A stretch of DNA of 63,942 nt, filler included, from 4 parts of 4 records of this genome joined end to end with filler, not necessarily neighbours in it; one strand, 5' to 3'. Positions 5,887-59,269 are shown, counted from the whole stretch's first letter. Program-made: numbers and translations. Notes: generated by a model from the letters alone, not told the origin.

Positions 5887-5911
5887 GTCAGCACCTCAAA
5901 TCCCTCTGACT

Positions 5912-8950: not shown

Positions 8951-8970
8951 CACGTCCTCATTTTCCTTCT

Positions 8971-12866: not shown

Positions 12867-13007
12867 CATGCTAGGCAAGCATGCCAGAACTAACGAGCAA
12901 GTGAGGGGCATCGCAACAATGTCTTTTCTGCAAGGCTCTGACATTCGCTTCGTTTGACCACTCACCCCAGAAATCTCGAGTAAGTGGGCAGGTTCATTCT
13001 TTTGGAC

Positions 13008-13230
13008 AGAGCTCACTAGCTGCCTATAGCTGCCCTTCGTGTACAGCTCAGTGAATTAACATTTTCCACGCTCAATGTTTGAAGTCCATGTCCGCTTTGG
13101 GCTGCCTGCAGCCACCCATGGCTGCTTAGACCTCGCCCAAATGAAGGATAATGGCGCTGCACCGCAGCAAGGCGGCTTTGAGCCCATTTTTCTGTTTCGT
13201 CAAGGCGCAGCGAATGACTGCAAACTCAGA
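13008..13230 (+). repeat. Cluster 2 of the same palindromic repeat family
   Basis: Units 13087-13116 (catgtccgcttt-gggctg-cctgcagccacc) and 13168-13197 (caaggcggcttt-gagccc-atttttctgttt); linker 13198-13212 (cgtcaaggcgcagcg) followed by aatgac; linker-like 13038-13053. Confidence 0.75.
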
Positions 13231-13261
13231 TACCAACTAAGAAAATATGGTAGTGAGGTGT

Positions 13262-13882
13262 TCAGTAATAGCGGCAGGTCAAGCCATGTCGGTACATTGC
13301 GTGTGCAAGCTGAGACATGTCACCCGCGCGCGCAGGAAACTCCATAACAACGTTGATTCGAACAGAGAATAAAAGTTTCTCATCAGCGGTCAGGTATCGA
13401 GCGGTGTGGTTCCGCTGAGCAAATGAACCATGGTCACCAGATTGAATTTCGGAAAGCCATTTCATCAATACGTTTGATTTGGCTTGCAGTTCATTTGTAC
13501 CGAGCGTTCTATTATCACTCCAAGAAATGCGAAGTTCGCGAAGTTTGGCATTTAGCTCTTCAATTGTCATACCCGAAGCTTCGGCCCGGGCAGGCCAAGC
13601 AACATTGTATCGGGTCGAAAGCTGTTTCCCATACGGCCATTCAAGGCGTCCTGGGTCGGTTTCATAGCTCTGAACATCAAACAGGCTGATTGTGGCGAAG
13701 GACTCGGATAATTCGGTCAGTTTAACATTGCAGTCCTTGATAACTGCCTCAAAATTTCCACTTAGACGGTCGTCTTCGTGTATCGGACTCGAAGGGAAAA
13801 ACCGATCAAGCTCAGTTGTGGCAAAAGCTTGGCTGCAACTCATTAAAACTAGGGCGACAAATAGACTTCCAGATCCCGACAT
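13262..13882 (-). CDS. Hypothetical secreted protein
   Basis: 206-aa ORF with signal-peptide-like N-terminus (LFVALVLMSCSQAFA) and AGG-containing RBS; no family recognised. Confidence 0.65.
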   Translation of the reverse strand: MSGSGSLFVALVLMSCSQAFATTELDRFFPSSPIHEDDRLSGNFEAVIKDCNVKLTELSESFATISLFDVQSYETDPGRLEWPYGKQLSTRYNVAWPARAEASGMTIEELNAKLRELRISWSDNRTLGTNELQAKSNVLMKWLSEIQSGDHGSFAQRNHTARYLTADEKLLFSVRINVVMEFPARAGDMSQLAHAMYRHGLTCRYY

Positions 13883-13983
13883 TAATACCTAATCCTGTTT
13901 CCAAGTAATTCCTGCGTCTGGTGCATGGGATCGTCGAGCTTAGCATTTTATCGCAATAAATACTGCATAGTGTGCATTAGGTT

Positions 13984-14174
13984 TATGTCGGCTTCGTCCG
14001 CACAACTGCTGTTGGGCGGGCCTCCTTTGCTGGACTGCAACCTTCTTACTGCGGAGAACATGCAAGGTTCGTTGTTCCGCGTTGCAGACCTAATCTTGGT
14101 TTGACCCCAATGGTCGCTTGGAACGGCTGTAGCCCTTACCGGAAAACGTGCAGCTTTCCGCCATACGAGCCGTT
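13984..14174 (+). repeat. Cluster 3 of the same palindromic repeat family
   Basis: Units 13984-14013 (tatgtcggcttc-gtccgc-acaactgctgtt), about 14064-14092 (aaggttcgttgttccgcgttgcagaccta) and about 14146-14174 (acgtgcagctttccgccatacgagccgtt). Confidence 0.6.
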
Positions 14175-14543
14175 GCATTCGTTCAAAAATCAGTTCCGAG
14201 TTTGAAATCTGGAATACTGACCGATGCAATGCTTGCCGCGCTGTAATTATTGCGATTTTCCGTTTCTGGGAATTGATAGCAATACCGGGAACAGGATTTC
14301 CCAGTTAGCGTGTCAATCTTCGCGGTTTTTTTGAGGTTAGGGCAGGGGCGAACTTAGCCTAAAGTCCTGATTTAAAGGGAGGCACAAGCGCCTTGATGCG
14401 TTTGCAATTATCTCTGTTGCAAAATGCGCAAAACGTTCTGAGAACCCCGTTTGAAGCCTTGTTGAAAAACATCAGGCGTTCGGCTGAGATTGAGCCGTAT
14501 TGCGCTATAAATCCCTGTTTTTACTGATCCTGTCCGGGTTCTT

Positions 14544-14643: not shown

Positions 14644-14987
14644 GCCTCAAGCAAAGTTCCTCTGACACTGCCCTCGAATGGGCGTGATGAGCATGGAGCG
14701 GACGTCCTCGGGTGTGATCACTCTCCCTGCCGTCTTTTGAAAAGAGTCAAATATACACACGCATATGCCACCTAGGGATACACATCTGAGAAGCTATCGT
14801 TGGAGCGAAGGTCAAAAAATTCGAGCCTGCCTTCAACTCTCCACCTGTAAACAATGGTACATGATTCAAAATTCTTTTCAGTTTTTTGCTCAAAGGCCTG
14901 TCGGTACAAATCATCTCTACAAACAAGGCGAATTTTGGCTTGGAGCGCTTCTCCGTCCCGGTTTCGCCGATGACAAGGAGGAAAGAA

Positions 14988-15959
14988 ATGTTCAAGATTT
15001 CAACGGGACTCGGGTGCTTATTTGCTGCGGCAATCACCGCCTCGGCGGCCCAGGCAGACGACTGCGGTGAAGTATCACTGATGCAGGCCGATTGGGGGTC
15101 AGCGCAAATTGTGACTGCGGTCTCGAAGTTCCTGATGGAGCAAGGCTATGGTTGCGAAGTGACCACGGTTCCGCTCTCGAGCAACCCTGCGCTGGCATCC
15201 GTATCCGAGACCGGGGAGCCTGATATTCTGACTGAAATCTGGACAAACGGCGCGCCGGCTTACCAAGGGCTGGTTGACTCAGGTGCGATCATTCCTGTGA
15301 CCGAAGTTCTGTCAGATGGCGGTGTCGAAGGGTTTTTTGTTCCGAACTACCTTGTGGAGGAACATCCGGAACTGGCAACACTTGAAGGCATCGCAGCCAA
15401 CCCCGAACTCGTCGGAAATCGCTTTCACAACTGCCCCGAAGGGTGGACCTGCCTGAATGTCAGCACCAACCTGATGAAGGCAGGCGGGCTGATCGATGCA
15501 GGCATTGAAAACTTTGTGCATGGATCTGGCGAAACCCTCGCGGCTTCGATCGCTGCCGCCTACGAAAACAAAGAGCCATGGTTCGGCTTTTATTGGGCGC
15601 CGACATCGGTACTGGGCAAATACCCGATGACTCTGGTCGATATGGGTCCCCATGACCCTGAAAAGCATGCCTGCAACATCACGGCGGAATGCGCGACGCC
15701 AGAAGTCAGCGCCTTTCCCCGCAGTGTCGTGGTCACAGTTCTCTCCAAGGAATTCATGGCTGAAAACGCAGCAGTGTCTGACCTGATGACAAATTTGTCC
15801 TTCACCAACACACAGATGGGCGAAACGCTGGCATGGGTCGAGGACAACAATGCCTCCTACGATGAAGGTGCTGTGCACTTTCTGACGACCTACAAGGATG
15901 TCTGGGGGGCGTGGCTTAACGATGCTGCGCGCGACAAACTTTCCGCATTGCTGCAGTAA
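14988..15959 (+). CDS. Glycine betaine/proline-type ABC transporter substrate-binding protein (ProX/OpuAC family)
   Basis: AGGAGG RBS, signal peptide; CGEV..MQADWGSA, GYGCEV, PDILTEIW, NCPEGWTC and FYWAPT motifs. Confidence 0.9.
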   Translation: MFKISTGLGCLFAAAITASAAQADDCGEVSLMQADWGSAQIVTAVSKFLMEQGYGCEVTTVPLSSNPALASVSETGEPDILTEIWTNGAPAYQGLVDSGAIIPVTEVLSDGGVEGFFVPNYLVEEHPELATLEGIAANPELVGNRFHNCPEGWTCLNVSTNLMKAGGLIDAGIENFVHGSGETLAASIAAAYENKEPWFGFYWAPTSVLGKYPMTLVDMGPHDPEKHACNITAECATPEVSAFPRSVVVTVLSKEFMAENAAVSDLMTNLSFTNTQMGETLAWVEDNNASYDEGAVHFLTTYKDVWGAWLNDAARDKLSALLQ

Positions 15960-15970
15960 ACTGCATGGAA

Positions 15971-15994
15971 AGGGGCATCCTCAGTGATGCCCCT
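15971..15994 (+). terminator. Stem-loop after the substrate-binding protein gene (mRNA stabiliser or attenuator)
   Basis: AGGGGCATC-ctcagt-GATGCCCCT 9-bp stem without a U tract. Confidence 0.55.
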
Positions 15995-16026
15995 AACGCA
16001 GTGAAGAAGATTGGAAAGTTGGATAA

Positions 16027-17055
16027 ATGGCCTTCTACGACAAGTTATTCAGCGCCTTGGTTTTGAGCGACTGGTGCGGCACATCAGATGCCGATGCGCC
16101 TCTTTCGTTGGCGGACCTTGCGGCGCGAGCAGGGGGACAGGAGGCCTCTGGGCCGTTCTTTCCGATTCCTTCATTCGATAATCTGCATGAAAGCTGCAAC
16201 CGCATATGGCAGTCGCGCGATGTAACCAACGGTATCGAAGAAGGGTTTCTGGCAGCCAAACCTGCTCTGAAAGCTGTTCTGGATCCGATCACACAACCAT
16301 TGAGCTGGATGTTGGATGGCGCACTTTGGCTGTTTGAGGCGACGCCATGGTTCATCATGGTCCCGCTTCTGGTGGCGATTTCCTGGTACGCGTCGCGTTC
16401 GCGCCCTGTGACGATCTTCGTCGCCGTCTCGATCATGCTGCTGGCCCTCGTAGATCACTACGATGTGGCGATGCAAACCCTGTCGATCATCTTTGTGTGC
16501 ACGACGTTATCGGTGCTTTTCGGTGTGCCAATAGGAATTGCCATGTCGAAATCCGACCGATTGCAAAAAAGCGTCGTTCCGTTACTCGACCTGCTGCAGA
16601 CCCTGCCGACCTTCGTGTACCTGATCCCTCTGATTTTCTTGTTCTCGGTCACGGAATCCAAACTGTACGGGATTGCGATCATCCTTTACGCGATTGTGCC
16701 GGTGATCCGCCTGACAGATTTGGGCATCCGGCTTGTCGACAGGGATGTGATTGAGGCGGCTAATGCCTTTGGCATGACGGATCGCCAGAAACTGTTGCGG
16801 GTCCAATTGCCGTTGGCGTTGCCCAATATCATGGCCGGGATCAATCAGACCATCATGATGAGCCTTGCCATGGTCGTGATCGCCTCTCTTGTTTCGGCTC
16901 CTGGCCTTGGCGTGAACGTGTTGCGCGGTATCCGAAACCTTGAACTGGGTGTGGGCATCGTTGCGGGTATCGGCATCGTGCTGCTGGCCGTGATCCTTGA
17001 TCGCGTGTCCAAAGCGGCTCTCACACGGGTCGATAAAACCCAAGTCAAGCACTAA
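16027..17055 (+). CDS. Betaine-type ABC transporter permease (ProW family)
   Basis: LDLLQTLPTFVYLIP, EAA loop (IEAANAFGMT), IMAGINQTIMMSLAMVVIASLV. Confidence 0.92.
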   Translation: MAFYDKLFSALVLSDWCGTSDADAPLSLADLAARAGGQEASGPFFPIPSFDNLHESCNRIWQSRDVTNGIEEGFLAAKPALKAVLDPITQPLSWMLDGALWLFEATPWFIMVPLLVAISWYASRSRPVTIFVAVSIMLLALVDHYDVAMQTLSIIFVCTTLSVLFGVPIGIAMSKSDRLQKSVVPLLDLLQTLPTFVYLIPLIFLFSVTESKLYGIAIILYAIVPVIRLTDLGIRLVDRDVIEAANAFGMTDRQKLLRVQLPLALPNIMAGINQTIMMSLAMVVIASLVSAPGLGVNVLRGIRNLELGVGIVAGIGIVLLAVILDRVSKAALTRVDKTQVKH

Positions 17056-17067
17056 GGAGCCGTTTCG

Positions 17068-18126
17068 ATGACACAACCAATGGTCAGCCTTCGCGGGCTC
17101 TACAAGATCTTCGGCGCCCACGACAAAGAGGTGCTCAGCCACGTCAAGAACGGCATGGCTAAGGAAGAGTTGCTGGCGCAGCACAAACACGTGCTGGGTC
17201 TCAACGACATCAACGTCGACATGCAGGCGGGCGAAATCACCGTTGTCATGGGCCTGTCAGGCTCGGGTAAATCCACGCTGATCCGCCACCTGAACCGGTT
17301 GATCGAACCCACTGCGGGCGAGATCATGGTGCAGGGTGAGGACGTGATGAGCTTGTCTGAAGACGGGCTGCGTCATGCCCGCCAGGAAAAGATGTCGATG
17401 GTGTTCCAGAAGTTTGCGCTTATGCCGCACAAGACCGTGCTAAAAAATGCGGGCATGCCTCTGTCCGTGCGTGGCGAGGACGAGGCAACCTGCGACCGCG
17501 AAGCCGCGAAATGGCTGGATCGCGTTGGTCTGAGCGGGTTCGAGAACCACTATCCCGCGCAGCTGTCGGGCGGCATGCAACAGCGGGTGGGCATTGCCCG
17601 GGCGCTGACCGCAAACACACCGATCATGCTGATGGACGAGGCGTTCTCGGCCCTTGACCCGCTCATCCGAACCGACATGCAGGACCTGCTGCTCGAGCTG
17701 CAAAAAGAGCTGCACAAGACCATCATCTTCATCACTCACGATCTCGATGAGGCGTTGAAACTGGCCGATCACCTTGTGATCCTCAAGGACGGCTTTGTCG
17801 TGCAACAGGGCGAGCCGCAGCATATCCTGCTGAACCCCAACGATCCCTACATCGAAGACTTCGTGAGCGACATCAACCGCGCACGGGTTCTGCGGGTGCG
17901 CTCGGTTATGACTCCAATTGGGGGTGACAAAGTTCCCGCGGATGCCCATGGCGAAGTGGACGTGAACGACACGCTCGAAAGCATGATCGCGCGGTCCGGC
18001 GGGGATACGTCACACGCCTATGTCGTCAAAGATGGGGAGCAGACGGTCGGCACACTGGATATGACCGAACTGGTTCGCGCTCTCGTCCCTCGCGTCGCAT
18101 CCAAGGCCGGTGCGCGTCAGTCCTGA
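17068..18126 (+). CDS. Betaine-type ABC transporter ATP-binding protein (ProV family)
   Basis: Walker A GLSGSGKS, LSGGMQQRVG, MDEAFSALDPLIR. Confidence 0.95.
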   Translation: MTQPMVSLRGLYKIFGAHDKEVLSHVKNGMAKEELLAQHKHVLGLNDINVDMQAGEITVVMGLSGSGKSTLIRHLNRLIEPTAGEIMVQGEDVMSLSEDGLRHARQEKMSMVFQKFALMPHKTVLKNAGMPLSVRGEDEATCDREAAKWLDRVGLSGFENHYPAQLSGGMQQRVGIARALTANTPIMLMDEAFSALDPLIRTDMQDLLLELQKELHKTIIFITHDLDEALKLADHLVILKDGFVVQQGEPQHILLNPNDPYIEDFVSDINRARVLRVRSVMTPIGGDKVPADAHGEVDVNDTLESMIARSGGDTSHAYVVKDGEQTVGTLDMTELVRALVPRVASKAGARQS

Positions 18127-18159
18127 CGCGCGCTGACAGCAGAGCTGAATTTTATAAGA

Positions 18160-19083
18160 TCAGGCTCGAAATAGCCGCATGGTTGGGTCGGCCTCGATCC
18201 GTTCGAACAGCCAGTTGATAAATGTATCGAGCTTCGGGTTGGGTGTACGTTCTTTTTGCGTCGCCAGATACCAGCGGCCTGGTTCTGGCACCGATATGTC
18301 GAACGGTCTGACCAGACGACCCCTTTCAAGATCGCGCGCGCAAAACGGTGCTCTTGCGACGCTGATACCGCGATTGTTCAGAACAGCCTCACGGACAAGC
18401 GGGTAATTGTCGAAAATCGGGCCGAATTTCATAGTGCCACGGTCCAAGCCCGCCGCATCCAACCAACAGTCCCAGTCATCCGGCTCATTCCATGTGCTTG
18501 GGACACTCAGCAATAGGAAATTTCTTAGCTCTTCCAGCGGCATTCCACCGCTTGGCACATTCAAGGCCTCCGGTGCACAAACCGGGTAGATATCCGTTTC
18601 GAACAAGGGGTTATAGTCAAATCTCTTATCAAAAGGTGGTGCATTGAACACGCCCACATCGAACCGGTGCATGTCATAATCACCGTCTTCAAAGGTAGAG
18701 ACTATGCGCACGCGTGTGTCAGGATTGTTCTGAAGAAAATCTGCCAATCTGGGCTGTAGCCACATTGTGTTGAAACTTGCGTAGGACTGAACGAGCAAAA
18801 CGTTCGGCTCCTCGGGGGTCTGGATGCGCCGCGTGGCTTTGATGATTCCCTGAATGTGTTCGCGGATCGAAGGGTAGTATTGCTCGCCAGCCGGTGTCAG
18901 TTCGACCGAACGGCTGGTGCGTTCCAGCAGTTTGACACCGATTGATGTTTCCAGTGCCTTGACCTGGTGGCTGACTGCCGCATGCGTCACACAAATCTCG
19001 TCAGCCGCCTTTCGAAAGCTCTTGTGACGCGCTACCGCCTCAAAAGCGCGCAGTGAAACCAGCGTGGGCATATGAGTGGTCAT
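18160..19083 (-). CDS. LysR family regulator (GcvA-like)
   Basis: LRAFEAVARHKSFRKAADEICVTHAAVSHQVKALE helix-turn-helix; divergent from the CoA ligase operon. Confidence 0.92.
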   Translation of the reverse strand: MTTHMPTLVSLRAFEAVARHKSFRKAADEICVTHAAVSHQVKALETSIGVKLLERTSRSVELTPAGEQYYPSIREHIQGIIKATRRIQTPEEPNVLLVQSYASFNTMWLQPRLADFLQNNPDTRVRIVSTFEDGDYDMHRFDVGVFNAPPFDKRFDYNPLFETDIYPVCAPEALNVPSGGMPLEELRNFLLLSVPSTWNEPDDWDCWLDAAGLDRGTMKFGPIFDNYPLVREAVLNNRGISVARAPFCARDLERGRLVRPFDISVPEPGRWYLATQKERTPNPKLDTFINWLFERIEADPTMRLFRA

Positions 19084-19320
19084 TACTGCATCTCCTTGAT
19101 GAAACAAACTCTGCTTACCATCAAGCAGAGTTATCCGACGACTGGCGCGAATGCAGCAGGGTCTTGATACTCTTTTTCATAGCCTATCAGGGGGTAAAAC
19201 ACAATTCGCGGTGCGACATGATCGGTTAGAATTTCTTGATGAAAGGAAATTTCTTTCAATTCTTCAACTGGACGAGAAATGCCAGATTAGAAGGTAAAGA
19301 AGCTCAAGGATTCCACCTTC

Positions 19321-20925
19321 ATGCCACCATTGTCACCTTCGTCTAATGCATATGGCTATCCGTTGCTGATCAAACACTTGTTAACCGGATCGAACATTGC
19401 GTCCGCCTGCCAAGAGATCGTCAGCGGCACCGAAATGCGGCTGAGCTACGCGGACTTGGGCAAACGCGTGCGCCAACTGGCCAATTCTTTAAAGGTCAGT
19501 GGGATACGTGAGGGAATGAGCGTCGGCGTCATGGATTGGGATACACACCGTTATCTTGAGTGTTTTTTCGCGATCCCGATGATGGGCGCGACCCTTTTCA
19601 CGATCAACGTCCGTCTGTCTCCTGCCCAGGTCCTTTATACGATCAACCACGGCAGGCCGGACCTGATCATTGTGCACCGCGACTTCAAGCCGCTCGTTGA
19701 GGATATCAAATCGGGCTTTGATCGGGACATCATCATCGTGCCGATTGGCGACGGTGAAGGGTATGAAGAGTGGATAGGCGCGGCCCCGGGCAGCTTTGAC
19801 TTCCCGGACTTCGATGAAAACCAAACCGCAACCCTGTTTTATACGACCGGGACAACCGGCAATCCCAAGGGGGTGAGCTATTCACACCGGCAGTTGGTCC
19901 TTCACACACTGGGCCTGATCGCTGGTTTCGGCGCGTGGCCGGGGAATTCCGGTTTTCATCGCGGCGACGTCTACATGCCGCTGACACCCTTGTTTCACGT
20001 TCACGGCTGGGGATTTCCATATGCCGCAACGATGCTGGGACTGCGTCAGGTCTATCCCGGTCGATATGACCCTGACACAATCTTGCGATTGGTTGCCGAC
20101 GAAAACGTCACCTTTTCCCACTGCGTGCCCACGGTTCTCTCCATGGTGCTAGACCATCCGGGCTGCCCGCAAACTGACCTGCACAGATGGAAAGTGATCA
20201 TTGGTGGGGCCGCCTTGCCGCGAGGCCTGCAGGACCGGGCGGCGGCGGCAGGCATATCCTTGCATGCGGCCTATGGGATGTCCGAAACCTGTCCGTTTTT
20301 GACAGTGGCCGATTTGTCCAGCGACGACCCAGGGGTGCAGGCGCAAACCGGCTTTCCCGGCCCGCTTGTTGACCTTCGTGTTGTGACACCGGATATGCAG
20401 GAGGTCCCACATGATGGCGAAACAACCGGCGAAGTTGTTGTTCGGGCCCCGTGGTTGACACAAGGCTATCTGGACAACGCGCAAGCCTCAGATGAGCTTT
20501 GGGATGGTGGGTATCTGCATACCGGGGATGTTGGGTATATCCGCGAGAATGGGTCGTTGCAGATCACTGACCGCGTCAAGGATGTGATCAAGACCGGCGG
20601 CGAGTGGATTTCCTCTCTGGCACTGGAAAACATAGCATCGTCTTGTGGTGGCATCGAGGACGTCGCCGCGATCGGACTGCCGCACGCGAAGTGGGGCGAA
20701 CGGCCAGTGTTGGTCGCTCAAGCCGCAAAGGATGCCGACCCGGATCTTGTGCGCCAGAGCGTCATGGAAGAAATCCATTCGCGCGTTGACGCAGGTGAAC
20801 TTTCGAAGTGGGCAGTTCCTGACGAAATATTCTTTGTCACCAGCCTTCCCAAAACCAGCGTCGGCAAGCTCGACAAGAAACGCGTGCGGCAAGACATTTC
20901 AACTCGCGCGGGCTTAAAATCATGA
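19321..20925 (+). CDS. Acyl-CoA ligase (medium-chain/AlkK/DmdB-like AMP-binding enzyme)
   Basis: YTTGTTGNPKG, YGMSET, YLHTGD, DRVKDVIKTGGEWISS and PKTSVGKLDK motifs. Confidence 0.92.
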   Translation: MPPLSPSSNAYGYPLLIKHLLTGSNIASACQEIVSGTEMRLSYADLGKRVRQLANSLKVSGIREGMSVGVMDWDTHRYLECFFAIPMMGATLFTINVRLSPAQVLYTINHGRPDLIIVHRDFKPLVEDIKSGFDRDIIIVPIGDGEGYEEWIGAAPGSFDFPDFDENQTATLFYTTGTTGNPKGVSYSHRQLVLHTLGLIAGFGAWPGNSGFHRGDVYMPLTPLFHVHGWGFPYAATMLGLRQVYPGRYDPDTILRLVADENVTFSHCVPTVLSMVLDHPGCPQTDLHRWKVIIGGAALPRGLQDRAAAAGISLHAAYGMSETCPFLTVADLSSDDPGVQAQTGFPGPLVDLRVVTPDMQEVPHDGETTGEVVVRAPWLTQGYLDNAQASDELWDGGYLHTGDVGYIRENGSLQITDRVKDVIKTGGEWISSLALENIASSCGGIEDVAAIGLPHAKWGERPVLVAQAAKDADPDLVRQSVMEEIHSRVDAGELSKWAVPDEIFFVTSLPKTSVGKLDKKRVRQDISTRAGLKS

Positions 20926-21608
20926 CAGACAAGCAACGCCGTATTCAGGCGCTTATTCATTCCATTGTCACCTATCTGCAGGCTCATAGAGCTGCCACGC
21001 GCGGCGTCGATCTGACGTTGGACAAGCTGGCAGCCATGGACCTGTCTGACGAGAGGCTCATTGATATATCCGCCCAAGGAACCCGACATGAAGAGGTTCT
21101 GAATAACGCCATCGAAGGGGTTGTCGCCCCCGAATTGCAGGATATCGCAGGTTGTCTGAAAGCGGCCAAGGATGATCTGGTCTGGCGCGAGGACAACGCC
21201 CAATTCTATCCCCCCGGTGCCGATTTGGGAGAGGGATACACAAAGTGCAACCTGCATACCCTGCTCATCGGTCCCGATGCATGTGGGTATCACCATCCCG
21301 ACTTCAACCTTGGCATTTTCATGCTGGGCCCAAGGACGCTGTATCGCGACCACAACCACGACGCGCCAGAACTGTACCTGAACCTGTCCGAGAAATCCGG
21401 TTGGCGGTTTGGCAGCCGTGACTGGCAGGATTATCCGGCTGGATCACTTATCTGGAACGCGGCGGGCGATCCCCACGCCACAAGGGTCTATGACCAGCCG
21501 TTCATCTCGGTCTTTGTCTGGCTCGAGAACGTGCATTCACCCTGTAACGTGATCCATTTCGACGACTGGGCAGAGGTCGAACAGGATCTTGCCAAACAGT
21601 CCAATTGA
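20922..21608 (+). CDS. Dimethylsulfoniopropionate lyase family cupin (DddQ/DddL-like)
   Basis: Cupin motif 1 G.FMLGP..LYRDHNHDAPELYL and motif 2 AGSLIWN...PHATRV...P...VFVW; ATGA overlap with the ligase stop. Confidence 0.8.
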   Translation: MTDKQRRIQALIHSIVTYLQAHRAATRGVDLTLDKLAAMDLSDERLIDISAQGTRHEEVLNNAIEGVVAPELQDIAGCLKAAKDDLVWREDNAQFYPPGADLGEGYTKCNLHTLLIGPDACGYHHPDFNLGIFMLGPRTLYRDHNHDAPELYLNLSEKSGWRFGSRDWQDYPAGSLIWNAAGDPHATRVYDQPFISVFVWLENVHSPCNVIHFDDWAEVEQDLAKQSN

Positions 21609-21619
21609 GGTTTCCGAAC

Positions 21620-23740
21620 ATGATATCCATTAAACACACCGAGGGTGTCGTTTTCATTGAGCTGAATGCCCCACCGGTGAACGCCCTTGGCCTTAAGATG
21701 CGACAGGCGCTTTTTTCAGCCATTCACGACCTTGAATCTGATGACCAGGTCAAAGCCATCGTTCTGTGTTCGGCTCTGCCGCTCTTTTGCGGCGGCGCTG
21801 ATATCGTTGAGTTCCGCACCGGAGCTGTTTGGGACAAGCCAGACCTGCCGGACCTGTGTGTCACGATTGAAAACAGCAGGAAGCCGGTTATCGCAGCGAT
21901 AGCTGGCCCTGCCATGGGGGGGGCGCTGGAGATTGCGCTTGCCTGTGATTACCGTGTCGCGACTCCGGATGCCGTGTTGGGCCTGCCTGAGATCAAACTG
22001 GGGCTGCTGCCCGGTGCCGGCGGCACCCAGCGACTACCCCGGATTGCCGGGCTGGAAGCGGCAACGCAGATGATCCTGTCGGGTGATCCTGTGAAGGGCG
22101 AATATGCCCTGTCTTGCGGACTGGTCGACGCACTATTTGAGAACAACCAGGATTTTCGCGCGCATGTTTTGGGATTTGCCACCCGTGTCAGCCATGAGGG
22201 CGATCCAAAACGCAGTTGCGCGGATATGACCGTCACACACCCTGATCCAAAGGGATTTCTCGCGGGTTTCCGAGATCAGATTGCACCAAAGTCCAAGAAC
22301 CTTGTTGCTCCTGAACGATGCTTGGTATCCATCGAGGCCGCTTGCGAACTGCCGCTGACCGAGGGGTTGGCACAAGAGAAGGCAGGTTTCGCCGAACTGC
22401 TCGACACACCTCAATCGCGCGCCGGGCGGCATCTGTTCTTTGCAGAACGTGAATGCAATAAGGTTCCGGGCGTTACCCGTGCTGACCGACCACGTGACAT
22501 TGCATCGGTCGCCGTGATCGGTGCCGGAACAATGGGGCGTGGCATTGCCATCGCCTTTCTGCAGGCGGGGTATTCGGTCACGCTTCTGGAAACCACACAA
22601 ACTGCGCTGGAACAGGGGCTGGAAATGGTCCGGGAGCATTTCCAGCGCGCGACCCAAAAAGGGCGGCTCAGTGCCGATCGGGCAGAGGCAATCGCCGCCA
22701 ACGCCACCGGGACGCTCAGCTACGGCGACCTTGCAGAGGCCGACCTGATCATTGAAGCGGCGTTTGAAAGCATGAATGTCAAACGCCAAATTTTTGAAGC
22801 GTTAGACCGGCACGCAAAACCTGGCGCGATACTGGCCTCAAACACATCGACGTTGGATCTTGATGAAATCGCCGCAGTGACGTCACGCCCGGAGGATGTG
22901 ATTGGTCTCCATTTCTTCAGCCCGGCGAACGTCATGCGCTTGCTAGAGGTGGTGCGGGGCGCCAAGACCGCTCCCGATGTCATTGCAACGGCAATCACGG
23001 TCGCAAAGAAGATCCGAAAGCTCCCTGTCACAGTTGGCGTGTGCTACGGCTTTGTTGGAAACCGGATGCTGGAACCATACTTCCGCGAAGGATCCCGTCT
23101 GCTTCTTGAGGGGGCGACGCCGAAACAGGTGGATGACGTCCTTGAAGGCTTCGGCATGGCCATGGGCATTCACGCGATGGCAGATCTGGCCGGAGTCGAT
23201 GTGGGCGCCCGCGTGCGTCAGGAACGGCGTAGTGAAATCGCGCATGACCCGACATACCAGGCTGTGCAGGACAGGTTGTTTGAACTAGGCCGACTGGGTC
23301 AGAAAACCGGGCGAGGAAGCTATGTCTACGAGGGACGGACACGGGTCGAAGACCCTGAGATAGTTCAAATCAGTGCCCATTTGGCGGACTTGCATGGCGT
23401 GAAGCGCAGGGAAATCGACGATCAGGAAATCCTTGAGCGTTGTCTGTTCCCCCTGATCAACGAGGGCTTCTTGATTCTTGAAGAGGGCATTGCAACGCGC
23501 TCGGGTGATTGCGACCTGATCTGGACCAACGGCTATGGCTTTCCGAACTGGCGCGGCGGCCCGATGCACTATGCCGACGAGATTGGATTGAGCCACGTGC
23601 TGGAACGCATGAACCACTATCGGGAATCGCTTGGCGCCTATGGTGAGATGTGGTTCACGCCTACGCCTTTGTTGGAAGAACTCGCAACCTCGGGCGTGAC
23701 ACTTGCCGCATATTTTGATGCCAAAAAGGAAAAATCATGA
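21620..23740 (+). CDS. Bifunctional enoyl-CoA hydratase / 3-hydroxyacyl-CoA dehydrogenase (FadB/FadN-type)
   Basis: [71 protein letters not shown]. Confidence 0.95.
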
Positions 23741-24921
23741 GAGAAGCCCTTATCGTCTCAACCGCTCGAACCCCTATTGGGGTTGCCTTCAAAGGTGCGC
23801 TGAACAACATCAAATCCCCTACCATGATGGGGCACGCCATGCAGCACGCGGTTGAACGTGCAGGCGTGGACCCCGGTTCGATCGAAGATGTCGTCATCGG
23901 ATCGGTCCTGACTGCGGGAACAGCAGGCATGAATGTTGCCCGGCTTTCTGCGCTGGCGGCGGGCCTTCCCAATACGGTGGCAGGACAGACGATCGACAGG
24001 CAATGCTCCTCCGGGTTGATGGCCATTGCGACGGCTGCAAAGCAGGTCATTGTGGATGGTCAGAACGTTGCCGTGGCTGGCGGGCAGGAGAATATTTCCG
24101 CCCTGCAGAATGCATATCTGAAATGGGCAGGCGATGAGAAAGACCCAAATGTTATCGCCCAATCAGAGCATGCCTATATGCCGATGCTGATGACGGCGGA
24201 AAATGTGGCGCGAGCTTATGGGATCAGCCGCGAGGCGCAGGATGAATACGCCGCCTTGTCGCAAGCCCGGACGGCCCGGGCCCAGGCTGCTGGCGCTTTT
24301 GATGACGAGATCGTCCCGATCACCGCGATCAAACGCGTCAAGAACCGCGAAACCGGGGAGGAAACCCTGGAAGAAGTGACCTTGTCACAAGACGAAGGCA
24401 ACCGGCCGGGCACGACGGCCGAAACTCTTGGCCAGTTGAACCCGGTTGTCGAAGGAGGCTTGATCACGGCCGGAAACGCAAGCCAACTTTCCGATGGTGC
24501 CTCGGCGTGTGTGCTCATGGAAGGCAAAATGGCTGAGCAGCAGGGCCTCACACCGCTCGGTATCTATCGCGGCATGGCTGTTGCAGGAAACGCACCGGAA
24601 GAGATGGGTGTCGGCCCGATCTATGCCATTCCAAAACTGTTGAAGACTGCAGGTCTTCGTATGAGCGACATTGGCCTTTGGGAGCTTAACGAAGCCTTTG
24701 CCTGCCAGGTTCTGTATTGCCGTGACCGTCTTGGGATCGATCCCGAAATCTACAACGTGAACGGCGGTGCAATATCGATTGGCCACCCCTACGGCATGAC
24801 AGGTGCGAGACAAGTCGGGCATGCTCTGATTGAGGGGAGGCGTCGTGGCGTGAAATACGTGGTGACCTCCATGTGTGTCGGCGGAGGCATGGGCGCCGCA
24901 GCACTGTTCGAAGTCGCCTGA
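23737..24921 (+). CDS. Acetyl-CoA C-acyltransferase (thiolase)
   Basis: [22 protein letters not shown] and SMCVGGGMG with catalytic residues intact; ATGA overlap with the upstream gene. Confidence 0.95.
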
Positions 24922-24967
24922 GCCATGTTTCCTGTCACCCGTAATCGGTGATAGCCCTTTCAGCGTC

Positions 24968-25987
24968 ATGACCAATGTCGCGCCAACGATCCTTTCCACG
25001 GTTTCCAGCCAGTTTGTCGATGACTGGCTGGCGGCGCTGCGTGCGCTGTGCACAGAGGAGCACATGGCGTCCCTGCTTGGCCGGTCCGGTCTGAACGCGG
25101 ATACGCGCGCGCCGAATGGTCGCGTCACGCTGGATCAGATCGTATGCCTCTATCAACTTGCCGCAGTTGAGACCGGTGACGAGATGATGGGGCTTTGGCG
25201 CAGACCCATCCGGCCGAGGGCCCTGCAACATCTTCTGACCACCGTCAGGGAAGCCACGTCTCTTGCTTCTGCACTCTACCGGTTTTCCACCTTCTGGAAT
25301 TTGCTGCTGGATGACTATCAGTTTGATCTGGATGATACTGACAGCGTTTTGGTGCTGACCCTGAAACCACAAGGCGACGTGCCGCTTCAGCGGTTTGGGC
25401 ATATGCTGATCCTTAAACTTGCCCACGGGCTCATGTCTTGGCTGGCAGGGCATGAGGTTCCGGTTAAGGCTGTCGATTTCGCGTTTGACCGCCCGGACTT
25501 TGATCAGGATTACGCGATTATCTTTCCTGCACCGCTGCGGTTTGGCCAGCCCGCCACCGCAATCTCGTTCGATCCGAATGCACTTGGTCCCGTGCAGACG
25601 CGCAGCACCGCTGATCTTGACCGGTTCCTGCAAAACGCGCCCCGGGACTGGATCTTCACCTCTTCACGCGAGCACACCCAATCGCTACGGGTGCGCACCT
25701 ATCTGGGTCAAACGGGATGGGAGGCGGCGACCCTGACCCGGACAGCATCCGCAATGCACATGGCCCCGCGCACCCTGATCCGTAGGTTGCAGGCGGATGG
25801 CACGTCGTTTCAGGCGATCAAGGATGCCCTGCGCCGCGACATCGCGATCCGCGACCTGCAGGCGGGGCGCAAAAGCGTCGAGGCCATCGCCCATGATGTC
25901 GGATTTTCCTCGGCAGCAAATTTCCACAGGGCCTTTCAACGCTGGACCGGCAGCACCCCCAGCTCGTATCGCAGGAATCAAACGTAA
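24968..25987 (+). CDS. AraC family transcriptional regulator
   Basis: RTLIRRLQADGTSF...IAHDVGFSSAANFHRAFQRWTGSTPSSYR. Confidence 0.9.
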   Translation: MTNVAPTILSTVSSQFVDDWLAALRALCTEEHMASLLGRSGLNADTRAPNGRVTLDQIVCLYQLAAVETGDEMMGLWRRPIRPRALQHLLTTVREATSLASALYRFSTFWNLLLDDYQFDLDDTDSVLVLTLKPQGDVPLQRFGHMLILKLAHGLMSWLAGHEVPVKAVDFAFDRPDFDQDYAIIFPAPLRFGQPATAISFDPNALGPVQTRSTADLDRFLQNAPRDWIFTSSREHTQSLRVRTYLGQTGWEAATLTRTASAMHMAPRTLIRRLQADGTSFQAIKDALRRDIAIRDLQAGRKSVEAIAHDVGFSSAANFHRAFQRWTGSTPSSYRRNQT

Positions 25988-26182
25988 AGCGCCCGTTTTG
26001 TCACTTTTGGACAATGATCTGTCAGCGCACGAGATGGAGCTTGGCGGGCTGACTCGTTAAATCTTGTTTCAGATAAAGCGTTCTCAGCTGAAGTTTCGCC
26101 TTCATCGTTCATCAATCCGGCCATCCATGGCTGCCGGGTTGTGGCGTCATATGAGAATAATCGCCCTTGAAAGGACCCGCCA

Positions 26183-27361
26183 ATGTCAGACAAACTCGCC
26201 ACCATACTCCAAGCCGCACGCGACCACGCCGAGCAGGTCATCCTGCCCAATGTGGACGCCTGGAACGCCGCGAAGACATGGCCCCGTGAGGCATCGGACA
26301 AAGCCGGGGCCGCTGGTTTGACGGGACTCTACGCCCCCGAAGAGTTTGGCGGCCAGGGCTTGCCCCTTTCAGAGGGCATACAGGTCTACGAACAACTGGG
26401 GCTGGGCGATGGCGCTTATGCCTTTGCCTTGTCGATGCATAACATCTGCACCTTCGCGGGCTGCGGCTATGGCACGGATGTCTTCAAGGAAAAATGGGCA
26501 CGGGATCTGACCTCGGGCCGCAAACTGGCGAACTTTGCGCTGACCGAACCGCAATCCGGATCAGACCCGATGAATATGTACAGCCGGGCCACGATCAATG
26601 GCGACGGCACCTGGACGATCAGTGGCGCGAAGGCATGGGTCAGCCTGGCGACCGAGGCTGATATCTATTTCACCGTGGTCAAGACCAGTGACGCACCCGG
26701 CCACAAGGATATGGCGATGATCGCCATTCCCGCGGATGCGCCGGGTCTCAGCTTTGGCCCGCGCTACGACACCCCGTCCTACAACTTCCTGCCTCTAGCC
26801 GAGATGTACATGGACAAAGTCGTGGTTAGTGAAGACAACATCATCCTGCCCACTGGCCAGGGTCTGCAAGGCTCACTCATGGCGATCGATATCGCACGCG
26901 TTTCGATTGCGTCGGGATGCTGCGGATTGATGCAGGCGGCTTTGGATACGGCGCTGTCCTATTCCAAGAACCGTACGATGTTTGGCGGCAAGAACCTCGG
27001 TCTGGACGGGATCCAATGGATGCTGGGCGAGGTGGCCACCGATCTGGAGGCGTCCAAGCTGCTTTATCGAAAGGCGGCAGAAGCCCTTGGCACGCCCGAG
27101 GGGCCGCTTATGGCCGCCCATGCCAAACGGTTCGTGCCAGATGCCGCAGTGAAGGCTGCGAACACCTGCACGCAAGTGTTGGGTGGTATGGGGCTGTTGC
27201 AGCCCTATGGTCTGGACCGTTTGTCCCGCCTCACACAAATGCTGCGGATCGTGGACGGTACAACCGAAATCAGCCGTGTAGTTATCGGGCGGGCCCTGCA
27301 AAAACGAGCGGCGACCTTGCCTGATCTGCCAGTACCGAAAGGATTTGGTGAAACCGGCTGA
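26183..27361 (+). CDS. Acyl-CoA dehydrogenase family protein
   Basis: [47 protein letters not shown]. Confidence 0.92.
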
Positions 27362-27441
27362 ACATCCCAGTTCCTGGAGAAACGGAACCCACCTGAAAAT
27401 CTCTTCAGAAATCGGTAAAATCGAATGTCCGGCCGTACACG

Positions 27442-27555
27442 TGTGGCCGGTTACTCGAGATTGCAGACCTTGGTGCAAACGCAGCGAATTGGTGCTTTGT
27501 CCGCATCTCGGTCGTTGCTGCAGACTGCAGCGAATGACAGGTCTCGGATCCGGTG
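27442..27555 (+). repeat. Cluster 4: tandem array of the 30-bp palindromic unit at the contig end
   Basis: Unit 27442-27471, linker ggtgcaaacgcagcg, unit 27487-27516, linker gctgcagactgcagcg, then a third unit from 27533 (aatgac...) cut by the contig end; period 45-46 bp. Confidence 0.8.
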
Positions 27556-27655: not shown

Positions 27656-27656
27656 C

Positions 27657-27752
27657 GTCCACTGCAAGACCTGCGACATCAAGGACCCGAACGGCAACAT
27701 CAACTGGACCGTTCCGGAAGGCTCCGGTGGTCCGAACTATCCGAACATGTAA
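27657..27752 (+). CDS. Electron transfer flavoprotein-ubiquinone oxidoreductase, 3' end only
   Basis: Manual translation [31 protein letters not shown], the conserved ETF-QO Fe-S C-terminus. Confidence 0.9.
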
Positions 27753-27780
27753 GGTTCGCTGCCAAACTGGAAAACATTCA

Positions 27781-27809
27781 AAGCCACGGGGAAACCCGTG
27801 GTTTTTTTT
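27781..27809 (+). terminator. Rho-independent terminator of the ETF-QO gene
   Basis: GCCACGGG-gaaa-CCCGTGGT followed by a T run. Confidence 0.9.
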
Positions 27810-27817
27810 GTTCCTTG

Positions 27818-28080
27818 AAAAAACGAACAGCACCGGAAAGGAAGCCTTCCCGGTGCTGCAGTCTTGCGGCCGATGGGTCGTAATCAGGCTGGCGTATGTG
27901 GGGGTCCAGCCTGTTGCGGTTGTCAAACACACGGACAAGGCCGAGTGGACATGCCACTCCGCTTGCTGCCGCGTGGTTGCCCGCGCCACAAGTTCGTACC
28001 CGTATTAACAACGGGCAATTCTTATGAGGTCGTTGGTCCCGATGGAGCCAGCGTGCACATTTATCCCAGAGATGATCTGG
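27818..28080 (-). ncRNA. Putative small RNA, copy A (5' end uncertain)
   Basis: Minus-strand terminator GCACCGGGAAGGC-ttcc-TTTCCGGTGC...TTTTTT with no credible ORF to terminate; 3' region homologous to copy B. Confidence 0.5.
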
Positions 28081-28561
28081 ATTTTTTTCGGGTTTCGATT
28101 TGTTTAATTCTGTTAACCAAAACCGTGATGGCGCCGGAATAAACTCCCCCTACGGCAAGGTCAAATAAATAATGAGACGAATAAAAACTTGTTATGACTC
28201 CAAAAGACAAAATTATACCAACTGGTCAAAAAATGCCCGGAATACGCCTCAACTGAAAACACGGAGCCTGGAAAATAAGGGTTGTCCGAAAATACCGATC
28301 AATACATCGCGATATTTGACAGTATAACTATTGCCGGCTTTTTCCGTTTACAAACAAGGCGATAAGGAACTTATCGACCTTCAGAGGGTCTATAAATTTT
28401 TTCTATATAACAATAAATTAAGAAAATGAATTAGCCAATTCTTTGAAATCTAAGCGTTTATTTCAACCACTCAACCATCAACTCCATCTGAAGTTGTTCG
28501 TCAAATCCTTCGCCATTTCACCAAAAACAGACTAACTAGCTGAAATTACTGATAAATCTAT

Positions 28562-28570
28562 TTATCCACA
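28562..28570 (+). promoter_or_regulatory. Perfect DnaA box
   Basis: TTATCCACA within the AT-rich intergenic region; single copy. Confidence 0.35.
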
Positions 28571-28649
28571 TACCAAATAGCGACCAGTTGGTTGTGATTG
28601 CAGTCTCGCGTTGGTTAATTTACTTTTACTTTCACGGGGCAAATTTGTA

Positions 28650-28915
28650 GCAAATCACCAAGATCTTGGTGACTTTCTACAAGTTCTTCGCGGAGTTCCC
28701 GCGGTTTTCCCGAAAGCTTAACGAGATCGAGCCGCGCAAGCGGTTGGATACCTTGTGGACAGGAAGACAGCAGGGTCATAACCAGCCGGCGGCGGTTCTG
28801 GTTCGGATCAGGCGGTTCATCCACCAAATTCATTCAGCACTGTTTCAACAGTTCTGAAACCCATCGACCACAAGGTTCGGCACCGGGAAGGCCACTTCCC
28901 GGTGCAATTTTTTTC
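28650..28915 (+). ncRNA. Putative small RNA, copy B (5' end uncertain)
   Basis: Plus-strand terminator GCACCGGGAAG-gcca-CTTCCCGGTGC-aaTTTTTTT at 28880-28914; CCGC-GCAA-GCGG GNRA hairpin at 28732-28743; homologous to copy A. Confidence 0.5.
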
Positions 28916-28950
28916 ACATCACCATGAACTGCGACGTAACCCGTCAGTCG

Positions 28951-30255
28951 TCAGGCTGCATCTCTGCGTGTGTTCTGACGACGGCGACGCGGAGGACGAC
29001 GGTTTTCGGACGCGTTGTCGTTGGCGCCGGAGGACGACTGCTTGCGGAACGGCTTCTTGCCGCCCGGCTTGCTGTTGCCATTCCGGTTTCCGCCGCGCTT
29101 TGCGCGGCCGGCAGCCGCGGACATCGGCGGAATTTCACCACCGGCAACCGTGATATCGATACCGATCAGCTTCTCGATCTGGCGGAAGAGACCGATTTCC
29201 TCCGGAGCACACAGGGCAATCGCCTCACCTTCCGCACCGGCGCGGGCCGTACGGCCGATTCGGTGAACGTAGGCTTCTGCAACTTCCGGCAGCTCGAAGT
29301 TATAAACGTGGCTGACACCCGGGATATCAATGCCGCGAGCGGCAACATCGGTTGCCACGAGCACGTTGATGGTGCCTTCCCGCAGATCCTTGATCGCGCG
29401 GTCACGCTGGTTCTGGCTCTTGTTGCCATGGATCGAGCCAGCGGAAATTCCGGAATGCGCCAGCTTGCGCATCAGCCGTTCCGCACCGTGCTTGGTGCGG
29501 CAGAACACCAGCGACAGCCCGTCCGGCTTGTCACGAAGCTGATCAACCAGGAAGTCGCCCTTGTCGTTCTTGTCCATGAAATGAACTGACTGGGTAACCT
29601 TGTCAGCTGTCTTGCCGGCCGGAGCAACTTCAACCCTCTCCGGGTTGCGCAGATAGGACTGTGCCAGCTCGTTGATCTGCTTCGGCATGGTCGCGGAGAA
29701 CAGCAAGGTCTGGCGCTTGTCGGCTACCAAGCCAGCGATCCGGCGCAGGGCATGAATGAAGCCCAGATCGAGCATCTGGTCGGCTTCGTCGAGCACCAGG
29801 TAGGAAGCGGTGCGCAGGTCGATCGCTTCACGATCTACAAGGTCCAGCAGCCGGCCCGGTGTTGCCACCAGAATGTCGGTGCCCTTTGAAAGCCGCTTGA
29901 TCTGGCCGTTGATGGACACACCACCGACAACGGAAGAAACCCGCAGCGGCGTATGCTTCAGGAAGGAAATCAGGTTCTTTGCGATCTGGTTCACCAGTTC
30001 GCGGGTCGGGGCCAGAATCAGCGCCCGTGTTCCCTTGGGAACCGCTCTTTTCTTCTCCAGGAGAAGCCGGTCGATCAGCGGCAGGCCGAAAGCAGCCGTC
30101 TTGCCCGTACCCGTCTGTGCCAGACCCATGAGGTCCCGGCCTTCCAGGATCAACGGGATGGCTTTTTGCTGGATCGGTGTCGGAGCGTCATAGCCGTTTT
30201 CGGTAACGGCAGTCACAAGGCCATTGGAGAGTCCCAGGCTTTGAAAGTCGGTCAA
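28951..30255 (-). CDS. rhlE: DEAD-box RNA helicase (RhlE-like)
   Basis: Q motif, AQTGTGKT, PTREL, TPGR, LDEAD, SAT, ARGID and HRIGRTAR; basic C-terminal tail; TTG start. Confidence 0.9.
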   Translation of the reverse strand: MTDFQSLGLSNGLVTAVTENGYDAPTPIQQKAIPLILEGRDLMGLAQTGTGKTAAFGLPLIDRLLLEKKRAVPKGTRALILAPTRELVNQIAKNLISFLKHTPLRVSSVVGGVSINGQIKRLSKGTDILVATPGRLLDLVDREAIDLRTASYLVLDEADQMLDLGFIHALRRIAGLVADKRQTLLFSATMPKQINELAQSYLRNPERVEVAPAGKTADKVTQSVHFMDKNDKGDFLVDQLRDKPDGLSLVFCRTKHGAERLMRKLAHSGISAGSIHGNKSQNQRDRAIKDLREGTINVLVATDVAARGIDIPGVSHVYNFELPEVAEAYVHRIGRTARAGAEGEAIALCAPEEIGLFRQIEKLIGIDITVAGGEIPPMSAAAGRAKRGGNRNGNSKPGGKKPFRKQSSSGANDNASENRRPPRRRRQNTRRDAA

Positions 30256-30505
30256 TATAAAATCCTTGGTTCAAGCGAAACAAACGCTTGTTAAGCCGCA
30301 CGTCATTGACGGTGCGACTTGAAGTTGGAATGCGGCACAGCCGGCAGCCATCGCTACCCGGTCTCTCTGCCGCCAGACCCTCGCGTGAAATGGGAACTGG
30401 TTGAACCCCTCATTGGGTTCTTGAAGTGGCAACCCTCTTGCGACTGCCCGCCAAGAAACTTCTCTTGTCCGGGGCGCACTCTCTGCTCACGCGGCAGCGG
30501 TTGCA
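30256..30505 (-). promoter_or_regulatory. Putative long structured 5' leader of the DEAD-box helicase gene
   Basis: 30487-30497 is complementary to both 30382-30388 and 30367-30373; internal hairpins; no credible ORF. Confidence 0.45.
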
Positions 30506-30587
30506 GTGCGGTATATCGTCGGGAACGCCCCTAATGTCAAGCAAAGAAGCCGCAAAAGCGCTTACAGCTCAAAAAGTTCGGCCTGCT

Positions 30588-31712: not shown

Positions 31713-31783
31713 TGGGGCTCCACGGACGTTTCATACTCCCTGTTAGGTAGGAGCCTGAACGGTCTGGAAAACCCGGCACGGTG

Positions 31784-32131: not shown

Positions 32132-32212
32132 GGCAGGCCGTTTGAAAAATGGAAAAGCGGACCGGTTGTACCGGTCCGCCTTGTTCAACAGAAGGCGCGA
32201 TTTGAAGCAGGA

Positions 32213-59240: not shown

Positions 59241-59269
59241 TCCGGCGCACACACGTGCGAGGTATCCCC

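Follow-up and report, generated by a model that had tools for sequence, protein, structure and literature searches.

A copy of the dddU cassette and the question of which onium acid its coenzyme A enzymes serve

What is degraded by a gene cluster in which an importer for onium compounds and a cupin lyase are set among a full complement of β-oxidation-type coenzyme A (CoA) enzymes? The question is raised by positions 14988-27361 of a 63,942-nucleotide stretch of DNA, hereafter the window, where ten genes (Table 1) encode a three-gene ATP-binding cassette (ABC) transporter, a LysR-family regulator, an acyl-CoA ligase, a cupin, a fused hydratase/dehydrogenase, a thiolase, an AraC-family regulator and an acyl-CoA dehydrogenase-family protein. 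A preliminary description of the locus took it for a candidate pathway for a sulfonium osmolyte longer than dimethylsulfoniopropionate (DMSP), such as gonyol (3-hydroxy-5-dimethylsulfoniopentanoate). The cluster is almost certainly a copy of the dddU cassette, a system already described in 2023. The preliminary description was right to see transporter, cupin and β-oxidation genes as one conserved unit, but overlooked that the unit was in print as the dddU cluster. We rank lysis of free DMSP or dimethylsulfoxonium propionate (DMSOP) first among the possible functions, followed by shortening of a gonyol-type acid, direct lysis of DMSP-CoA, breakdown of a nitrogen onium acid and, last, chance adjacency of unrelated genes.

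The published counterpart comes from a strain then called Amylibacter cionae H-12, whose renaming to Neptunicoccus cionae H-12 a later paper confirms. Wang et al. (2023, PMC11497337) describe in it an eight-gene cluster running from the binding protein to the thiolase, which was upregulated in DMSP medium and comprises a thiolase, an ‘enoyl-CoA hydratase’, DddU, a fatty acid-CoA ligase, a LysR regulator and a three-gene ABC transporter. All of these adjoin one another in the window. The primers of Wang et al. match locus L018, Neptunicoccus cionae CGMCC 1.15880, exactly; the window cluster is syntenic with this locus throughout, and its proteins match their counterparts in L018 and other loci at 88-97% identity. 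The window cupin is 90% identical to that of L018, which exceeds the limit of more than 70% identity to the H-12 protein that the paper sets for DddU. Its relatives at 74-95% identity are found mostly in Rhodobacterales. Gene order is the same as in the H-12 cluster, with proteins 90-96% identical, and L018 also carries the AraC and acyl-CoA dehydrogenase genes.

The biochemistry of DddU is likewise on record. Deletion of dddU in H-12 lowered the release of dimethyl sulfide (DMS) from DMSP about two-fold, and purified H-12 DddU and six homologues (seven proteins in all) release acrylate from DMSP with no CoA added (PMC11497337). The orthologues active on free DMSP in this way are 90-93% identical to each other (PMC11497337), and the strains assayed include R. 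faecimaris DSM 28009 (L013), P. atlantica (L010), S. sediminis ZQ172 (L021) and L. aquimarina DSM 24565 (L030). The enzyme is reported to be metal-dependent, with Tyr152 as the base that eliminates DMS from DMSP, or dimethyl sulfoxide from DMSOP, and leaves acrylate; DMSOP is cleaved more efficiently than DMSP (Carrion et al. 2023, PMC10686828). His146, Glu150, Tyr152 and His185 are required for activity (PMC11497337), and the window cupin has all four at these positions. The preliminary description had spoken of DddQ/DddL cupins, but the window protein belongs to the separately named DddU family. Like DddU, DddQ (PDB 4LA2, 5JSO and 5CU1) has a cupin fold with the metal/base motifs H-x-H-x3-E-x-Y and H, and it overlays a predicted DddU model, the root-mean-square deviation being 1.8 Å over 104 C-alpha atoms (PMC11497337). 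However, its sequence similarity to the window cupin is weak (E 2e-6 to 0.14), its gene context is another one, and DddU forms a separate clade (PMC11497337). A literature search for papers that join ‘DddL’ with ‘thiolase’ and ‘CoA ligase’ found none.

All ten genes have the order and strands given in the preliminary description, as confirmed by open reading frames (ORFs) and family matches, and both of the ATGA overlaps that it listed are present, at 20922-20925, where the ligase stop overlaps the dddU start, and at 23737-23740, where the fused-enzyme stop overlaps the thiolase start. The ATG of the binding protein at 14988 is preceded by AGGAGG and yields a gene of 972 nt, the length of an annotated orthologue on plasmid pP72_b. 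The true start of the LysR gene may be at 19083, the annotated orthologue being 924 nt long, while for the fused enzyme ATG 21620, 12 nt past the cupin stop, is a likelier start than TTG 21605. Promoter and terminator scans yielded no more than chance would, with 5 hits where 5.5 were expected and 10 where 12 were.

The association of dddU with the CoA genes extends well beyond the window. A cupin identity of at least 65% defines 44 loci, and in 33 of them both flanks are informative. The ligase, the fused enzyme and the thiolase are all present in 28 of these, all absent from four, and in one the ligase alone is missing. All three accompany dddU down to a cupin identity of 71%, in a gammaproteobacterial metagenome-assembled genome (MAG; L036). 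These 28 loci are descendants of one cassette and not independent events. The preliminary description had made its proposal depend on the combination turning up in other genomes, and there it does turn up.

To judge from the alignments, the cluster is a mobile, modular cassette that occurs across many Rhodobacterales genera at a DNA identity of about 91%. DNA identity stays at ~87-92% from 14674 to ~27500 in 12 genome loci and then ends abruptly at unrelated flanks. Shorter forms either stop at the thiolase stop codon (24921-24924) or, as seen in Roseovarius and Leisingera, start at the LysR gene (~18160) and have no transporter. The binding protein is present in 22 of the 30 cassette loci with enough upstream sequence, and the acyl-CoA dehydrogenase in 11 of the 22 with enough downstream sequence. 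In Phaeobacter inhibens P72 the cassette sits on a conjugative plasmid, Leisingera also carries it on plasmids, and further copies lie in gammaproteobacterial MAGs (L016, L036 and L045). The AraC and acyl-CoA dehydrogenase genes do follow the operon, as the preliminary description had it; they are nevertheless a separable add-on, outside the published DMSP-responsive set, and occur without the cassette on a Ruegeria plasmid (L054).

The four informative loci without CoA genes carry stand-alone DddU homologues that are 69-82% identical, two of which (L028 and L037) lie near DmpX-like binding proteins with a tyrosine discussed below. Since such loci exist, the DddU family can act on a free substrate. 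In a tree of 48 rows, from which L038, L040, L045, L051 and L052 were excluded as short hits or for stops, long branches place the stand-alone genes within or next to the cassette clade, with a support of only 80-84 at the forks. The stand-alone genes have other onium-type surroundings. At L037:5447-9589 a dimethylglycine-dehydrogenase-like gene (DAO and GCV_T) directly adjoins the start of the cupin gene, and a PhyH dioxygenase, an M24 peptidase/creatinase-like gene, a GntR regulator and a Tyr-type DmpX-like transporter lie nearby; L028:5165-17132 holds an aminotransferase, a Cys/Met pyridoxal phosphate enzyme, M24, PhyH and a Tyr-type transporter.

Two variations on the cassette were also seen. 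A PF04116 ‘fatty acid hydroxylase’ gene adjoins the LysR gene in 22 loci (e.g., L109:9994-10995, L003, L029-L031, L041-L043, L048, L119 and L120), which comprise cassette variants and a separate group where LysR stands beside a cupin only ~60% identical. In 20 of the 22 loci the hydroxylases share 84-100% identity, against 51% and 54% in L046 and L038, and the window copy has no PF04116 gene. In 13 cassette variants, including L091:7305-8105, L127:12275-13069 and a form with binding protein labelled Candidatus Pseudothioglobus singularis, a further stand-alone crotonase (NF006013, 344-352 bits) lies between dddU and the fused enzyme.

The ligase passes the cut-off of NF004837, ‘long-chain-fatty-acid-CoA ligase’, and its nearest solved relative is the promiscuous acyl-acyl carrier protein synthetase AasS of Vibrio harveyi (PDB 8HSY, 540 bits), ahead of DmdB (6IHK, 292 bits). 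An assignment as DmdB itself, the methylmercaptopropionate-CoA ligase, was considered and rejected, the score for NF005426 (373 bits) being far under the equivalog cut-off of 822. The equivalents of AasS His226, Val227 and Trp230 are kept in the window ligase, but do not discriminate chain length because DmdB keeps them too. Identity to PrpE is only 25% (PMC11497337). The fused enzyme resembles Cupriavidus FadB' and rat MFE1, its LEIAL and LPEI motifs aligning to 6IUM and 2X58. The glutamates of these two motifs, both present, are presumably the catalytic hydratase glutamates. In the thiolase, whose nearest solved chains are peroxisomal 3-ketoacyl-CoA thiolases, Cys90 (CSSG), NEAF318, GHP and Cys380 (CVGGG) make up a complete Cys-His-Cys set, which together with NEAF we take to be the catalytic set of a degradative thiolase (thiolase I). 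The acyl-CoA dehydrogenase-family protein departs from the classical (Y/F)EGT glutamate: its Asp358 (IVDGT) aligns with the glutamate of 3NF4 and 4L1F and is conserved in 13 of 13 orthologues.

Judged by these motifs, a complete and intact degradative set surrounds dddU. The preliminary description had argued that lysis of free DMSP needs no thiolysis, and this stands, as dehydrogenase and thiolase fit no known route from free DMSP or acrylate. Wang et al. call the CoA genes acrylate genes (PrpE and AcuK), and the accessible text of their paper is silent on the dehydrogenase domain, the thiolase chemistry, the acyl-CoA dehydrogenase and the phenylalanine of the binding protein described next (PMC11497337).

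The nearest solved relative of the window binding protein is RnDmpX (7YLE, E 5.5e-115), the DMSP-specific binding protein of the DmpXWV ABC importer (Li et al. 2023, PMC10030565). The pocket of RnDmpX is formed by Trp35, Thr64, Trp84, Glu113, Trp152, Ala153, Tyr200 and Trp202; Tyr200 contacts the sulfonium sulfur, and both Y200A and Y200F abolish DMSP binding (PMC10030565). DmpX is reported to have little affinity for betaine, choline and carnitine or for trimethylamine N-oxide (TMAO). The window protein shares family and architecture with DmpX, has the PF04069 fold and keeps the four cage tryptophans and Glu113. However, it lacks the full pocket: the aligned residues read W-S-W-E-W-T-F-W, so that five of the eight equal RnDmpX, while Thr64 is replaced by Ser, Ala153 by Thr and Tyr200 by Phe (Phe235 in the numbering of the long ORF). 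Phenylalanine is also found at the aligned residue of TmoX, a TMAO binder (4XZ6).

This exchange follows the cassette closely. Phe occupies the Tyr200 position in 62 of 120 database homologues, 61 of them at 77-98% identity to the window protein and one at 63%, and Tyr in the remaining 58, which are 59-72% identical. The binding-protein genes in 132 loci divide into 57 of the Phe type and 45 of the Tyr type, and all 57 close binding proteins belong to the former. Where at least 6.5 kb of downstream sequence is available, ligase and dddU follow every one of 36 Phe-type genes and none of nine Tyr-type genes; in loci fetched by the binding protein alone, the counts are 15 of 15 and 0 of 8. The Phe form, in contrast to the Tyr200 of DmpXWV, is confined to a cassette-linked clade and thus marks the cassette lineage.

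We give about an even chance to the reading that free DMSP or DMSOP is the substrate and that the CoA enzymes act on the three-carbon product. Under the control of the LysR regulator, the operon would degrade a DMSP-type onium acid: the importer would take up this acid, DddU would remove the sulfur group and leave acrylate, and the co-translated ligase, fused enzyme and thiolase would process acrylate to acryloyl-CoA and 3-hydroxypropionyl-CoA, possibly further, while the AraC regulator and the acyl-CoA dehydrogenase would be a separately regulated add-on. Lysis of the free compound is supported by the activity of DddU without CoA in vitro, by the occurrence of the family on its own and by the importer, whose closest relative is DmpX.

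Several observations weigh against free DMSP. The dehydrogenase and thiolase are intact and translationally coupled, yet no known acrylate route needs them, and the ligase resembles a medium/long-chain enzyme (AasS) and not a C3 enzyme. The cassette binding proteins carry the very residue, Phe at the Tyr200 position, whose introduction abolished DMSP binding in RnDmpX. The altered pocket argues for a ligand other than DMSP; DMSOP, the better substrate of DddU, might fit a pocket that lacks the tyrosine hydroxyl. DMSP does not serve strain H-12 as its sole source of carbon (PMC11497337). The rates are also difficult to reconcile. PiDddU, the best homologue, has a Km of 8 mM and a kcat of 0.7 per s, and H-12 DddU turns over at 0.15 per min (PMC11497337), which from the paper's figures we calculate to be ~1630 and 5.8 nmol/min/mg of pure enzyme, respectively. 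H-12 cells, by comparison, produce 485 nmol DMS/min/mg protein, about half of it dependent on DddU (PMC11497337). With an in vitro rate too low for the flux in vivo, either the recombinant DddU is for the most part inactive or it has a better substrate available inside the cell. Finally, induction was measured in a transcriptome, its data not deposited, by comparison of DMSP as the only carbon source, on which there was no growth, with a mix of six good carbon sources (PMC11497337), and as the control differed in carbon source, the up-regulation could reflect carbon limitation or relief from catabolite control.

A better substrate is what the gonyol scheme of the preliminary description would provide, and we consider it a tentative second choice. 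The substrate would be a longer onium acid that is shortened as its CoA ester. For gonyol the ligase would form the ester, the dehydrogenase would oxidise the 3-hydroxyl, and the thiolase would yield acetyl-CoA and DMSP-CoA, from which DddU would eliminate DMS before the hydratase domain hydrates acryloyl-CoA. More broadly, though with no greater likelihood, the cassette may be a β-oxidation route for phytoplankton onium acids of five or more carbons, gonyol foremost, with the Phe-type DmpX binding them and DddU serving as a DMSP-CoA lyase. The scheme is chemically sound and gives each operon gene a role. It draws on the overlaps that couple ligase to dddU and dehydrogenase to thiolase, on the persistence of dddU beside all three CoA genes in 28 of the 33 informative loci, on the degradative type of the thiolase and on a ligase akin to AasS, a relative with a wide acyl tunnel. 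The binding-protein pocket that differs from DmpX at three of eight positions, the low activity on free DMSP and the second crotonase of 13 variants can be accommodated as well. Gonyol occurs widely among haptophytes and dinoflagellates, and bacteria consume it (Gebser et al. 2020, PMC7221440).

Several points count against this scheme. The four model bacteria that consumed gonyol did so without releasing DMS, by pathways given as unknown (PMC7221440), although the cassette status of the four was not checked. No gonyol catabolic genes are named among the literature matches listed. DddU cleaves DMSP or DMSOP without CoA, and stand-alone genes exist. That DddU acts on a CoA ester is put forward here purely as a hypothesis, and a search for a CoA-site signature, in the form of basic residues kept in cassette DddUs but systematically lost in stand-alone ones, found none. 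The residue lost from the binding protein is the contact to the sulfonium sulfur, a head group that gonyol shares with DMSP, and its loss would not be expected of a gonyol binder either; TmoX, with the same Phe, binds TMAO.

Alternatively, DMSP itself could be activated by the ligase, with DddU as a DMSP-CoA lyase that yields DMS and acryloyl-CoA for processing by the fused enzyme and thiolase. We think this rather unlikely. Such a pathway would be a two-protein counterpart of DddX and DddD, precedents for CoA-dependent DMSP lysis in which the CoA-forming and DMS-releasing steps likewise take place on one carbon skeleton, with acryloyl-CoA or 3-hydroxypropionyl-CoA as product. There, however, one protein performs both steps, whereas the window has an AMP-forming ligase of the fatty-acid type and a separate cupin. 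The overlap of ligase stop and dddU start, the slow turnover of free DMSP in vitro and the rise of the operon in DMSP medium would all suit it. Against this, thiolase and dehydrogenase are left without explanation, and the binding protein lacks the tyrosine needed for DMSP binding in DmpX.

Less probable still is a nitrogen onium acid such as gamma-butyrobetaine, carnitine or trimethylammonium propionate, degraded by a β-oxidation-like route, the action of DddU on DMSP and DMSOP then being a side activity. Sinorhizobium meliloti converts gamma-butyrobetaine to carnitine in a β-oxidation-like manner; this route also handles an onium acid as its CoA ester with fatty-acid-type enzymes, but is not known to involve a cupin lyase and cleaves the chain with another enzyme family. 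The combination of TmoX-like Phe and four-tryptophan cage in the binding protein agrees with such a ligand, as does the joint presence of ligase, acyl-CoA dehydrogenase, hydratase, dehydrogenase and thiolase in 11 of the 22 loci with room for the add-on. Yet it is not clear what a lyase would do once carnitinyl-type esters have undergone thiolysis, half of the cassettes and also the published DMSP-responsive set lack the acyl-CoA dehydrogenase, and the close relative DmpX is reported to bind carnitine, TMAO, betaine and choline only poorly. That a DMSP lyase and its importer came to lie beside an unrelated fatty-acid β-oxidation set by chance is very improbable. The cassette is modular, with forms that lack the transporter or the AraC and acyl-CoA dehydrogenase genes, and its ligase, multifunctional enzyme and thiolase resemble common enzymes of fatty-acid metabolism. 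However, dddU sits inside an operon whose junctions from ligase to fused enzyme overlap or span 12 nt, the linkage recurs in most informative loci, ligase and dddU invariably come after the Phe-type binding protein where there is room, and in H-12 the eight genes went up in concert (PMC11497337).

The window copy differs from the H-12 cluster in its setting, as it lies on a contig of its own in an assembly whose other contigs come from a species of another order. Artificial linkers divide the window into at least four contigs placed end to end (1-14543, 14644-27555, 27656-58030 and 58131-63942), and the cluster takes up one entire contig of 12,912 bp with a G+C fraction of 0.566. Gene neighbourhood across the linkers carries no meaning; AsmA-like and RhlE-like genes are not shown to be linked to the cluster because they are on other contigs. 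The compared part of the contig after the cassette (27656-34000) is 98% identical to the nearest genome, G001, which itself lacks the cassette. Neither the cassette contig nor positions 8000-14543 of the first contig have a counterpart in G001 or in its congener G297, where just weak ABC-transporter similarity was seen, and the compared part of the preceding contig thus also appears to be accessory or foreign. No Pfam or NCBIfam family matches a 206-amino-acid ORF of that first contig (13262-13882, minus strand). Among 301 sampled genomes of the order to which G001 belongs, no relative of the ligase exceeded 51% identity. With no counterpart in G001 or G297 and no close ligase among the 301, the cassette is therefore either a strain-specific acquisition or a contig foreign to that organism. 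No tRNA genes were found in the window. Genuine repeats, direct or inverted, were also absent from the cassette ends, where the artificial linkers account for the only long ones.

Near-identical copies of positions 18160-24921 were detected in 13 metagenome DNA runs, seven of which hold at least half of the sampled words, and six RNA libraries hold 11-13% of them. Four RNA libraries contain relatives of every part of the cassette at 88-99% identity, as assembled contigs of up to 50 kb. Given contigs of this length in one ‘RNA’ library, the matches say nothing on transcription or its level. Run X16, recorded as transcriptomic RNA-Seq of a single organism, has contigs of 11.7-50 kb and a cassette relative of ~92% identity over 14644-27555; such contigs suggest carry-over of DNA from an associated bacterium rather than transcripts.

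Table 1 Genes of the dddU cassette and artificial linkers in the window
Feature	Position	Strand	Evidence or remark
Contig-joining linker, N runs around TTAATTAATTAA	14544-14643		100 nt; left end of the cassette contig
OpuAC-type periplasmic binding protein, DmpX paralogue	14988-15959	+	PF04069, E 6e-47; PDB 7YLE, E 5.5e-115
ABC permease (ProW/ChoW type)	16027-17055	+	Family matches
ABC ATPase (ProV type)	17068-18126	+	TIGR01186, 331 bits (cut-off 326.6)
LysR-family regulator (GcvA-like)	18160-19107	-	Family matches; divergent from the ligase operon
AMP-forming acyl-CoA ligase, fatty-acid type	19321-20925	+	NF004837, 544 bits (cut-off 476)
dddU, cupin DMSP/DMSOP lyase	20922-21608	+	PF16867 (DMSP_lyase), 77.6 bits (gathering cut-off 27)
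Monomeric enoyl-CoA hydratase/3-hydroxyacyl-CoA dehydrogenase, FadB'/MFE1 type	21620-23740	+	PF00378, PF02737, PF00725
Degradative 3-ketoacyl-CoA thiolase	23737-24921	+	Cys90, NEAF, GHP, Cys380
AraC-family regulator, first gene of the two-gene add-on	24968-25987	+	Start at ATG 24968 likely
Acyl-CoA dehydrogenase-family protein, second add-on gene	26183-27361	+	Family match; Asp358 (IVDGT)
Contig-joining linker, N runs around TTAATTAATTAA	27556-27655		100 nt; right end of the cassette contig
Contig-joining linker, N runs around TTAATTAATTAA	58031-58130		100 nt

The window therefore adds one more copy of a described, horizontally mobile cassette, and gives grounds to re-examine its published assignment, among them the Tyr-to-Phe change in the binding protein and the carbon-source confound in the induction experiment. 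The gonyol hypothesis is neither shown nor excluded, and doubt is raised that free DMSP is the whole story. DMSP breakdown feeds the flux of DMS from ocean to atmosphere, and surveys count dddU as a DMSP lyase gene. If the gonyol reading were true, these would be the first genes for gonyol breakdown, and the weak activity of DddU on free DMSP would be a side reaction. Should the cassette in fact serve another onium acid or a CoA ester, metagenome surveys that count dddU would be gauging a process other than DMSP cleavage.

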